Made by a program: the position numbers and the translations under genes. A stretch of DNA of 64,000 bases from Parcubacteria bacterium C7867-001 (GTDB lineage Bacteria > Patescibacteriota > Minisyncoccia > Phycocordibacterales > Phycocordibacteraceae). Location: positions 253,159 through 317,158 of the forward strand of contig LFCK01000001.1 of the NCBI GenBank assembly GCA_001189095.1, read 5' to 3'. Positions 19,048-21,882 of the stretch are shown in pieces. The stretch's first letter is position 1. Each line of letters begins with the position of its first letter. A model generated the notes under the pieces. The model had not been told where the DNA came from, searched no databases, and saw only the letters and a program-made list of their open reading frames with translations.

Positions 19048-21882
19048 ATGGGGAAGACGGGCTACGATCACAAAGCACTAGAGAAAGCCGCTCGGGAGAA
19101 ATGGGCGGAGCGTAATCTCTACGTCACTGACCTTACGGACGAATCGAAGGAGCCGTATTACCTCCTGTTCGAATTCCCGTACCCTTCTGGCGACCTCCAT
19201 ATTGGACACTGGTTCGCATTCGGGGTGACCGATATCTTTGCGCGCCTAAAGCGCATGCAAGGGAAGAACGTTCTTTTCCCTATCGGGTTCGACGCGTTCG
19301 GTCTTCCGGCAGAGAACGCGGCGATAAAGTTCGGTAAGGATCCGAAAGAGTGGACGGTCGCAAATATGGAGCGCATGACCGAGCAGTTGAAATCGATCGG
19401 TCTTTCAGTTGACTGGAGTAAGCGCATCGCCTCATGCGAACCCAAGTACTATCACTGGACCCAGTGGCTTTTCCAGAAATTCTACGAGCAGGGCCTCGCT
19501 GAGCGTCGCAACGCGCCGGTGAAGTGGTGTCCGAAGGATCAGACCGTGCTCGCGAACGAGCAGGTCGTGAATGGTGCTTGCGAACGCTGTGGCACGGAGG
19601 TCGAGGAGAAGAACCTCACACAGTGGTTCCTCAAGATTACGCAGTACGCTGAACGTCTTCTCGCAGATCTCGAGCCGCTCCCATGGCTTGAAGAAATAAA
19701 GGAGGCGCAGCGCCAGTGGATCGGAAAATCGGAGGGAGCAAAGCTGTGGTTCACCATAGAAGGAAGCGAGGAGGCTATTGAGGTATTTACGACTCGTCCA
19801 GACACGCTGTATGGCGCGACCTATGTCGTGCTCGCACCTGAGCACCCGCTCGTCAGTGCGCTTCCGGCTACAAATCGTGCAGAAGTTGATGCGTATGTTG
19901 CGCAAACGAAGCTTAAAACTGAGCGCGAACGACAGGAAAACAAAGACAAGACTGGCGTTCGGCTTGAGGGTATTACTGCCGTTAATCCCGTAACCAAGGA
20001 GTTGATTCCTGTTTTTGCAGCCGACTACGTGCTCGCAACCTACGGTACGGGCGCGGTTATGGCGGTTCCTGCGCACGACGAACGCGATTTCGCTTTCGCA
20101 AAGAAATACGATCTACCGATACGCTACGTTGTTGCACCAAAAATGATCGACACAGGAAATCCTCCTCAGGACGGGAAGCGTGTGGTGAAGCGCTACTCCA
20201 TTCTTGCGGTCGTGCACGATCCAAAGACCAAAAAATATCTTTCACTCAAATGGAAGGAGCAGGGTTGGACTACCTTCATAACCGGAGGTATCGACGCGGA
20301 TGAAGATGTTGTGGAGGCGGCGAAGCGGGAGATTCTCGAAGAAACCGGCTACAAGAATCTAAAATTCATACGCCGACTCGGCGGTCCGGTCTGGGCGGAA
20401 TTCTTCGCTGCTCACAAAGACGAGAATCGCATTGCAATAAACAGTCCGCTTCTCTTCGAGCTTGAAAACGACGAGCGCGATCCGGTTGCTCAAGCGGAAT
20501 TGGATCAGCATGAAGCGCACTGGCTCGATTTGAAAGAAATTGCTGCTGAGAAAATGCGTCATGCCGAAATAGAACAAATACTTTCACACCTCGACGGAGA
20601 GGATGGTGCCTACACCGGAGACGGCATGCTCATAAATTCAGAAGCATTCGATGGACGCGAGAACCGCGAAGCGTTGTGGGATATCGTCACGGCTGCGGAC
20701 GGCGAGAAGACGACCAACTACCGTATCCGTGACTGGCTGGTGAGTCGCCAGAGGTACTGGGGCTGCCCGATTCCGGTCGTCTACGACCCTGAGGGTAAGG
20801 TGCATCTTGTGCCAGCTGAGCATTTGCCGTGGCTCCTACCTGAGGATGTCGATTTCAAGCCGACTGGCGAAGCGCCACTCGCGTCCTCCAAAGAGTTAAA
20901 GGAGCGTGTGACGCGTATCTTCGGCGAAGGATGGACCCCCGAATACGATACACTCGACACCTTCGTTGATTCATCGTGGTACTACACGCGCTATCTTGCA
21001 GCAGATGATGATACGCAGTTCTCAAATTTTTCGTTGATGAAAAGATGGCTTCCCGTGCAGCGGTACTCAGGCGGAAGCGAGCACACCACGATGCATCTTC
21101 TGTATGCCCGATTCTTCCATAAAGCACTCTACGACCTCGCTCTTGTTCCAACGCCGGAACCATTCCATGAGCGTTTCAACCGGGCAATTATTCTTGGACC
21201 GGACGGCAATAAGATGAGCAAATCGAAGGGGAACGTGATTAACCCTGACGATATTGTCGAGAAATATGGAGCTGACGCAGTGCGCATGTATCTCGCGTTC
21301 ATTGGTCCCTACAACGAAGCGGGACACTATCCGTGGAGTCTCGATGGTGTACCAGCGATGCGTCGCTTCCTCGAGCGAGTGACCAAGCTTGTTCCGAATT
21401 TGAAGGAGGGTAGTGCCACTGAGGCGGAACGAAAGGCTCTTGCGAAAGCGACGGTGAAAGTTGCGGACGATTCCGAGCGCTTCAAGTTCAACACCGCAGT
21501 ATCAGGACTTATGGTGTGCCTTAACGAACTTGAAGCCTCCAAGAGTTGTAGCAAAGAAGCGTTCGTCGAGTTCGTAAAACTCCTTGCTCCATTCGCGCCG
21601 CATCTTACGGAGCAGCTCTGGGAAGCGGTCGGACAAGCAGGCAGCGTGCATGAAGCGCTCTGGCCGGCTGCCGACCCAAGTCTTCTGACGGAAGATACGG
21701 TCACGGTGGTCGTTCAGGTAGCAGGGAAGAAGCGGGGAGAGGTCATGCTGGCGCCAACAGCCTCAGAAGAAGAGGCACTTAAGGCTGCGCAGTCGATTCC
21801 CACCGTAGCGGAACTCCTCGCGCAGGGCACCCCAAAACGGGTGGTCTACGTGAGCGGCAAAATCCTCAATATCGTCCCCTAG
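19048..21882 (+). CDS. leuS: leucyl-tRNA synthetase with an inserted Nudix hydrolase domain
   Basis: HIGH ([15 protein letters not shown]) and KMSKS ([12 protein letters not shown]) motifs. 944 aa, versus ~800-870 for a typical bacterial LeuRS. Confidence 0.95.
   Translation: [944 protein letters not shown]

Follow-up and report, generated by a model that had tools for sequence, protein, structure and literature searches.

The leuS Gene and Its Synthetase Features

The 64,000-nt stretch of the Parcubacteria bacterium C7867-001 genome analysed here (contig LFCK01000001.1, positions 253,159 to 317,158; hereafter, the window) carries a leuS gene (19048–21882, + strand) encoding a complete bacterial-type leucyl-tRNA synthetase (LeuRS) of 944 aa plus stop. 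Within this open reading frame (ORF), a surface loop of the CP1 editing domain holds an insert of 157 aa (aa 363–519; 20134–20604, +), which is a complete Nudix-fold domain. The source is an 812-kb, 53% GC metagenome-assembled genome from groundwater (Nelson & Stegen 2015, PMC4508563), and the genome paper says nothing about the nested Nudix domain. In the databases, the protein has a counterpart of 100% identity, the entry ‘leucyl-tRNA synthetase [Parcubacteria bacterium C7867-001]’ (P0027).

The host gene is predicted to encode a working LeuRS, in which the aminoacylation site, the CP1 post-transfer editing site, and the anticodon-binding and C-terminal domains are intact. The bacterial LeuRS equivalog model TIGR00396 matched it with 893.5 bits against a cutoff of 548.4, the match being broken into two stretches by the insert. 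A phmmer search of PDB sequences aligned it to the LeuRS of T. thermophilus (Tth; 1h3n) with an E-value of 1.5e-192, and this alignment reaches Tth residue 875 of 878, i.e., it includes the C-terminal domain. Based on Pfam annotation, the protein consists of a class I core, an editing domain, the NUDIX domain and an anticodon-binding domain (PF08264, aa 797–908).

The HIGH motif of the synthetic active site is located at aa 51–54 (19198–19209, +) and is kept in the 116 full-length fusion LeuRSs that form our close-homologue set; the KMSKS motif at aa 722–726 (21211–21225, +) is likewise kept across the fusion LeuRSs. The N-terminal part of CP1 (aa 222–362; 19711–20133, +; Pfam PF13603) includes the T-rich motif TTRPDT (aa 248–253; nt 19789–19806, +) and the sequence HDERD (aa 343–347; nt 20074–20088, +). 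According to the phmmer alignment offsets, they correspond to T252 and D345 of the E. coli enzyme, and their conservation in the fusion LeuRSs is at least 90–98%. The C-terminal part of CP1 (aa 520–558; 20605–20721, +) was delimited by alignment to Tth LeuRS and runs up to YRIRDW; its predicted local distance difference test score (pLDDT) was 94–96. AlphaFold2 modelled the whole 944-aa protein with a pLDDT of 89.3 and a predicted template modelling score (pTM) of 0.79, with values of 80–95 in the insert and 92–96 in the CP1 flanks.

Position, Limits and Fold of the Nested Nudix Domain

The Pfam NUDIX family PF00293 matched aa 382–506 (20191–20565, +) with an E-value of 2.7e-13 and 50.5 bits (cutoff 21.1), and the insert excised from the protein scored 55.4 bits against the same cutoff. 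The Nudix box G413-x5-E419-x7-R427-E428-I-L-E431-E432-T-G434-Y435 (20284–20352, +) covers the 23 residues at aa 413–435 and is an exact fit to GX5EX7REUXEEXGU. It is followed by a ten-residue signature of the subfamily at aa 452–461 (20401–20430, +), which combines an aromatic pair at the X-loop position with the near-invariant K457, N460 and R461. The AlphaFold2 model of the insert had a mean pLDDT of 94.1, a pTM of 0.88 and the α/β/α topology of Nudix proteins. In addition, the insert aligns along the whole length of stand-alone Nudix proteins of about 160 aa.

In the phmmer alignment to 1h3n, residues 6–362 of the query pair with Tth 4–362 and residues 520–717 with Tth 375–579. This split alignment means that about 157 aa stand in place of a loop of about 12 residues (Tth 362–375). 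Comparison with an insert-less LeuRS of the candidate phyla radiation (CPR) shows the same gap (query 368 to 524 versus 367 to 382). The PF13603 match covers aa 222–367, which correspond to model positions 1–145 of 185 (E 9.4e-62), and the alignment to the N. gonorrhoeae LeuRS stops, before the insert, at about residue 371. The editing domain of the latter enzyme comprises residues 225–427 (PMC9424281). After the insert, CP1 restarts at a stretch of 12 residues. Since 40 positions of the PF13603 model are left at the insert, the N. gonorrhoeae domain runs to residue 427, and CP1 resumes at aa 520, the alignments place the Nudix domain within CP1, not behind it.

An earlier note on this DNA, made from the sequence alone, had described a complete Nudix domain with a perfect Nudix box embedded in the 944-aa LeuRS, as an insert of about 160 aa at 20140–20620. 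The Pfam match, the predicted fold and the exact box bear this out, and the limits found here (157 aa, 20134–20604) are close to those given there. The note had also taken the insert to follow the end of CP1, which it recognised by a 21-residue motif. That placement was wrong and is ruled out by the 145 of 185 PF13603 positions matched before the insert, by the resumption of CP1 at aa 520 and by the limits of the editing domain in PMC9424281.

Conservation of the Nudix Domain

The insert is missing from none of the 116 fusion LeuRSs (0.3% gaps). Identity to the query averages 0.50 in the insert, the same as in the anticodon-binding/C-terminal region (0.50), while the catalytic core reaches 0.72–0.80. 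Residues G413, G414, R427, E428, E431, E432 and G434 of the Nudix box are conserved in at least 98% of these proteins, and E419, T433 and Y435 in at least 90%. Conservation of at least 98% is likewise seen for W407, T409, K457, N460 and R461, which are specific to the subfamily.

A diverse set of 191 Nudix domain copies gave a similar picture, with E428, E431, E432, K457, N460 and R461 found in 188, 183, 190, 186, 186 and 174 copies, respectively. Position 452 is aromatic in 181/191 (F in 132, Y in 49), and position 453 is Y in 100/191 and F in 76/191. These copies come from different settings, of which two lie in LeuRS: site B is the CP1 loop used in the window, and site A is the hinge at which CP1 joins the catalytic core (about positions 208–240 of the reference). 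The R-E-x2-E-E set is intact in 77 of the 89 site-B copies, 42 of the 59 stand-alone copies and 9 of the 16 site-A copies.

Taken with the conservation of HIGH, KMSKS, TTRPDT and HDERD, the conservation of the Nudix box is what three functional catalytic centres would lead one to expect. The residue pattern indicates that the Nudix domain is under selection as an enzyme.

Distribution in CPR Bacteria

A search with the insert only, in which a word-index step gave 62 candidates, returned about 25 free-standing Nudix proteins of about 160 aa from Parcubacteria and Saccharibacteria (41–54% identity) and one LeuRS-Nudix fragment of 99 aa. This result suggested a rare one-off fusion, an interpretation that was overturned by the search with the full-length protein: PF00293 and LeuRS domains occurred together in 120 of the 120 best LeuRS matches (62–67% identity; NCBI, JGI, ENA and Logan assemblies). 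When 1.84 billion representative proteins were searched with a profile of the Nudix subfamily, 137 matches fell below 1e-30. For architecture mapping, the window protein, the sequences P0001–P0146 from the insert-only and full-length searches and 150 listed profile matches were pooled (n = 296), and 211 of these 296 sequences were LeuRS-like.

In species-representative genomes, at least 490 loci encode the Nudix subfamily, and locus-level architectures were counted in the best 80 of them. The domain lies inside leuS in 80/80, and the exact architecture of the window, in one stop-free frame, is found in 62/80. The taxa represented are Paceibacteria, Moran-, Uhr-, Magasanik-, Kerfeld-, Taylor-, Zambryski-, Niyogi- and Berkelbacteria, and Levyibacteriota. 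LeuRS-Nudix is the usual LeuRS architecture over a large part of Parcubacteria/CPR. The earlier note had called the architecture non-standard for LeuRS; this stands in comparison with E. coli and T. thermophilus but not in the sense of an oddity, given at least 490 species-representative loci with the subfamily. Overall, we hold the structural and evolutionary description of the LeuRS-Nudix fusion with high confidence.

Two of the loci bear archaeal labels, L050 (Candidatus Woesearchaeota archaeon) and L053 (archaeon), and both encode a bacterial-type LeuRS with a site-B Nudix insert. Mis-binning or transfer between CPR and DPANN organisms could account for this. The fusion sequences are publicly available, annotated plainly as LeuRS or under a still broader name. 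As for names in NCBI, many of the full-length fusion LeuRSs (many of P0032–P0134) are called only ‘class I tRNA ligase family protein’, and a stand-alone Nudix protein of 160 aa (P0013) is mislabelled ‘leucyl-tRNA synthetase’.

Other Sites, Stand-Alone Genes and Other Hosts

The same Nudix subfamily occurs at site A of LeuRS, either alone, in tandem or together with a site-B copy. In L077 (Candidatus Taylorbacteria palsa_1337; segment containing 8001–8459), a stop-free LeuRS frame of 1735 aa contains three Nudix copies, two at the hinge and one in CP1, as well as two more inserts of about 225 and 325 aa; L061 (1351 aa) and L059 (1191 aa) have additional segments at site B.

Other hydrolases are nested in some CPR LeuRSs as well, at the CP1 hinge, beside the Nudix domain or ahead of the anticodon-binding domain, and the proteins that carry them are 1100–1330 aa long. 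A serine α/β-hydrolase (PF06821) was found in P0050, P0082, P0150, P0153 and P0245. In P0081, a HAD_2 domain (aa 365–519) immediately precedes the Nudix domain (aa 601–726), and a Ham1/ITPase domain is nested at the hinge in P0161 and before the anticodon-binding domain in P0166.

The neighbourhoods of five stand-alone genes were also compared. P0001, the stand-alone protein closest to the insert (46% identity), is encoded in GCA_040384245.1 immediately ahead of a leuS of 807 aa that has no insert (locus L003; Nudix 6001–6492, leuS 7071–9494). The gene order there, YchF ... Nudix – leuS – sigma70_r4/HARE-HTH – DUF8128, is syntenic with that of the window, where leuS has YchF upstream (16380–17477) and the sigma70_r4/HARE-HTH gene downstream (21946–23019). 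Another Nudix gene (148 aa) is situated 2 kb further upstream in L003. Two free-standing members stand beside or near a HAD_2 phosphatase gene: P0013 belongs to a HAD_2-LMWPc-Nudix cluster with a CYTH gene nearby (L001, 1947–3433), and P0007 is directly downstream of its HAD_2 gene (L085, 3089–4103). Such HAD_2-Nudix operons mirror the nested pair of P0081, and this analogy suggests a two-step nucleotide-hydrolysis pair. P0023 lies near a HIT-family gene, and the neighbours of P0003 are uninformative.

Furthermore, the subfamily was found in a class II synthetase. Five clusters (P0239 and P0296–P0299; 641–674 aa) are prolyl-tRNA synthetases (ProRSs) that carry the Nudix domain between the anticodon-binding and C-terminal domains, at about aa 377–540. 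The nearest insert-free relatives of these proteins are ProRSs of DPANN archaea. In a neighbour-joining tree of the 191 Nudix domains, nearest neighbours mostly belong to the same category, yet they are mixed (10 site-B copies have a stand-alone nearest neighbour, and 9 stand-alone copies a site-B one). The Nudix subfamily is CPR-specific and is tied, physically or genetically, to aminoacyl-tRNA synthetases (aaRSs), above all to LeuRS.

Surroundings of leuS in the Window

Between YchF and leuS lies an ORF of 178 aa (18508–19044, +), which has no Pfam match and whose sequence looks hydrophobic and like that of a membrane protein. It ends 4 nt before the leuS start codon, and its sequence context suggests that it may be co-transcribed with leuS. 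By 19 nt, it overlaps the start of a divergent ORF of 350 aa (17474–18526, −), in which a lytic transglycosylase (SLT) domain was recognised. The ORF of 471 aa that follows the sigma70_r4/HARE-HTH gene (23106–24521, +) gave no Pfam match; the L003 gene at the equivalent position is annotated as DUF8128. ARAGORN detected no tRNA or tmRNA gene in the 64-kb window (1–64000).

Predicted Catalysis and Substrate Class

The conserved catalytic residues allow us to infer that the Nudix domain is an active, Mg2+-dependent nucleoside-polyphosphate pyrophosphohydrolase. In a profile search of PDB sequences, the Ap4A (diadenosine tetraphosphate) hydrolase of Aquifex (3i7u) came first with an E-value of 3.1e-9, followed by AvrM14, 2azw, the lupin Ap4A hydrolase, Chlamydia CT771 and NudB. 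The structural neighbours of the predicted fold include the Ap6A hydrolase Ndx1, the diadenosine polyphosphatase Rv2985, and the human and C. elegans Ap4A hydrolases, but also MutT1, NudI and MutT-like proteins, and their Z and TM values do not separate the hydrolases of diadenosine polyphosphates (ApnA) from other Nudix classes. F452, at the conserved aromatic position of the X-loop, presumably aligns with the specificity Tyr of the human Ap4A hydrolase NUDT2. These comparisons weakly point to Ap4A/ApnA hydrolases as the closest characterised relatives.

ApnA is our leading guess for the substrate, albeit a tentative one. House-cleaning of non-canonical nucleoside triphosphates (NTPs) would be a close second, backed by the Ham1 and HAD associations. 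The Ap4A-type substrate named in the earlier note can thus be kept as the best available guess, given the top PDB profile match (3i7u) and the ApnA hydrolases among the structural neighbours.

Proposed Role and Alternative Explanations

The data show which domains are present, where the Nudix domain is nested, how well it is conserved, how widely it occurs and that it is linked to neighbouring genes. The role that we suggest below goes further, in that it predicts an active enzyme, its class of substrate and an advantage of tethering. Dinucleoside polyphosphates are products of a side reaction between ATP or another NTP and the aminoacyl-adenylate bound to the enzyme. The Nudix domain would hydrolyse the dinucleoside polyphosphates (Ap4A, Ap3A, Ap4N) made by this side reaction of the aminoacyl-adenylate; alternatively, its targets may be other aberrant nucleotides. 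By-products would be destroyed at the source and AMP/ATP recovered, in an organism with a genome of about 0.8 Mb. Tethering could provide stoichiometric co-expression and local clearance in such a minimal-genome cell. As to origin, an adjacent or operonic Nudix gene may have been fused in-frame into CP1, and the fusion would afterwards have passed vertically through much of Parcubacteria. We consider the chances evenly balanced that the domain is an active Nudix pyrophosphohydrolase tethered to a working LeuRS and clearing ApnA or aberrant nucleotides.

Several observations weigh against this proposal. An X-loop Tyr downstream of the Nudix box marks ApnA hydrolases (Srouji et al., PMC5389931), and the X-loop residues of the window protein are Phe-Phe, not Tyr. 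The Nudix equivalogs of NCBIfam (RppH/NudH, NudB, NudE, NadM-Nudix) all score far below their cutoffs on the window protein: the best RppH/NudH sub-model, PRK00714, gave 27.8 bits (cutoff 116), NudB NF006961 gave 34.7 bits (cutoff 103) and NadM-Nudix NF003786 gave 24 bits (cutoff 397), so that it is a member of none of these three families, and none of the NCBIfam MutT models passes its cutoff either. Only one of the five stand-alone genes examined adjoins leuS. The Nudix box is degenerate in three of the five ProRS fusions and canonical in two. Finally, the co-nested Ham1/ITPase, HAD and α/β-hydrolase domains and the HAD_2-Nudix operons fit a general nucleotide house-cleaning at least equally well.

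The last point leads to the strongest alternative, which we think somewhat unlikely. The Nudix domain may be a house-cleaning enzyme on a permissive carrier, which clears non-canonical or damaged (d)NTPs as enzymes like MutT, NudI or MazG do, perhaps feeding a HAD nucleotidase, with no mechanistic coupling to leucylation. LeuRS would have been chosen because the CP1 hinge and loops tolerate inserts, and because leuS is essential and constitutive and hence offers cheap, guaranteed expression in a streamlined genome. The Ham1/ITPase (P0161, P0166), HAD_2 (P0081) and serine α/β-hydrolase domains (five LeuRSs) nested in the same regions, the stand-alone P0013 and P0007 in their HAD_2(-LMWPc)-Nudix clusters with the CYTH gene near P0013, and the MutT1, NudI and MutT-like structural neighbours are all in line with such a function. 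However, the link to LeuRS is very specific (211/296 pooled sequences LeuRS-like, the best 80/80 loci in leuS), and the sole other host found is another aaRS, ProRS, whereas a pure landing-pad model predicts many unrelated hosts. In addition, the top sequence-profile matches are ApnA hydrolases rather than MutT.

An extension of the proposed coupling to leucylation takes in the whole family and is more speculative still; we regard it as doubtful. In ultra-small symbionts, namely CPR bacteria and some DPANN archaea, aaRSs might serve as scaffolds for nucleotide-directed hydrolases mechanistically coupled to adenylation, and might form a previously unrecognised class of multifunctional aaRSs that ties translation to control of the nucleotide pool or of alarmones. 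The set of hydrolases would, at the same rather low probability, comprise the aaRS-specific Nudix in one to three copies, Ham1/ITPase, the HAD phosphatase and the serine hydrolase. Their role, equally conjectural, could be to destroy Ap4A/Np4N signals, by-product nucleotides or aberrant ATP analogues where they are made.

It is improbable that the Nudix domain is directed at RNA, removing 5′ pyrophosphate like RppH or decapping NAD or Np4A caps, with LeuRS as a tRNA/RNA-binding platform. AvrM14, DCP2, RppH and oomycete Nudix effectors do occur among the profile and fold matches, some accessory copies also match the Pfam Nudt16-like family, and CP1 handles the acceptor end of tRNA (PMC9424281). 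Nevertheless, CP1 touches the 3′ end of tRNA and not the 5′ end, the NCBIfam RppH models reach at most 27.8 bits against cutoffs of at least 116, the free-standing versions of about 160 aa have no RNA-binding extension, and the HAD and Ham1 associations point to small-molecule nucleotides.

We give slightly less weight again to a non-catalytic module, which would tune editing or aminoacylation by sensing a nucleotide or other ligand, or by acting as a structural part or a contact to tRNA, similar to Nudix domains of the NrtR or CFIm25 type. There are well-documented cases of Nudix domains that are not enzymes (PMC5389931), the nested copy lies in the editing domain, which is mobile, and some copies have degenerate boxes (only 9/16 intact at site A, 3/5 degenerate in ProRS). 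Against this, the metal-binding and catalytic residues of the Nudix box are conserved at 90–98% or more in the window protein and its 116 relatives, and 77/89 diverse site-B copies are intact. Since the subfamily is found at either LeuRS site or as a separate neighbour gene, a position-specific structural role, such as a change to the editing pocket, is unlikely.

Extra proofreading, proposed in the earlier note, is very improbable. Hydrolysis of misactivated aminoacyl-adenylates (pre-transfer editing) or of mischarged tRNA might be expected from the location in the editing domain and from the esterase-type fold of the serine α/β-hydrolase co-nested in some relatives, but the canonical editing site is fully intact, so that no replacement is needed, and stand-alone homologues occur far from any aaRS gene; nothing was found in support of an extra module. 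In aminoacyl-AMP, a single phosphate forms part of an acyl-phosphate anhydride, and the bond in aminoacyl-tRNA is that of an ester; the two compounds are not nucleoside diphosphates linked to another moiety, the established substrates of Nudix chemistry. The adenylate-hydrolysis idea was therefore discarded on chemical grounds, the bond being an acyl-phosphate and not a pyrophosphate one and hence a non-canonical Nudix substrate.

Lastly, an artefact (a chimera, or a mis-called gene uniting leuS fragments with an unrelated Nudix gene) might be suspected in a metagenome-assembled genome (Nelson & Stegen 2015, PMC4508563) whose insert had stand-alone genes as its nearest matches in the insert-only search, but its probability is negligible and an assembly chimera is ruled out: the frame is single and stop-free, GC content shows no break (0.50–0.53 in the insert versus 0.51–0.58 around it), four sources (NCBI, JGI, Logan and nr) contain P0027, the identical protein, on 3 contigs, 120/120 best LeuRS homologues carry the domain, it lies in-frame in leuS in the best 80/80 independent species loci, and the insert-only search missed the fusions through its word-index candidate step, not through their absence.

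Significance and Comparison with Known Systems

The aaRSs are among the best-studied enzymes, and the accretion of extra domains is viewed as a largely eukaryotic trend. In the present case, an apparently active hydrolase lies inside the mobile CP1 domain of a housekeeping LeuRS, across a very large uncultivated bacterial radiation, and illustrates how functions may be consolidated by domain nesting in streamlined genomes. Should ApnA be the substrate of the Nudix domain, LeuRS-Nudix would be the first aaRS with its own by-product or alarmone hydrolase, and the old debate on how aaRS side reactions relate physiologically to Ap4A would become open to direct tests. On the practical side, fusion LeuRSs and stand-alone Nudix proteins need care in annotation, as the mislabelled P0013 illustrates.

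Compared with canonical LeuRSs (T. thermophilus 1H3N/2BYT, E. coli 4AQ7/4ARC and N. gonorrhoeae 6Q89), the window LeuRS has the same order of Rossmann core, CP1, anticodon-binding and C-terminal domains, and the same HIGH, KMSKS and T-rich motifs and catalytic Asp of the editing site. The difference is that the loop of about 12 residues (Tth 362–375) in the canonical enzymes is occupied by the 157-aa Nudix domain. Among the solved LeuRS structures returned by the PDB search, none has an enzyme nested in CP1. Literature searches found no paper that describes LeuRS, or any other aaRS, with a Nudix domain, and no curated LeuRS-with-Nudix model turned up in NCBIfam.

The characterised Nudix proteins 3I7U (Aquifex aq_158), 1VC8 (T. 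thermophilus Ndx1), Rv2985 (M. tuberculosis) and human NUDT2 share 17–22% identity with the nested domain and are free-standing. Unlike them, the window subfamily has the AAHKxENR signature and an N-terminal extension of about 20 residues, and the window X-loop has Phe in place of Tyr. The MutT/Nudix protein 2AZW of E. faecalis, a structural-genomics target, is also free-standing (17% identity) and has no known substrate, so it gives no functional information.

Two other known systems are comparable. A curated model of a bacterial class Ia aaRS with an additional enzymatic domain exists, ileS_w_GNAT (NF040702), in which the host is IleRS and the domain is GNAT; the window protein scored 70.5 bits against its cutoff of 1999. 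A precedent is NadM-Nudix, an NMN adenylyltransferase/ADP-ribose pyrophosphatase, in which a HIGH-motif nucleotidyltransferase fold is joined to a Nudix domain acting on a related nucleotide (PMC7824862). The nucleotidyltransferase fold of NadM belongs to the same superfamily as the catalytic cores of class I aaRSs. Nevertheless, NadM-Nudix is an end-to-end fusion with another partner enzyme, whereas the window protein is a nested insertion in LeuRS. Both parts of the window protein belong to well-known families; what is new is their nested architecture, its breadth in CPR bacteria and the existence of an aaRS-specific Nudix subfamily.

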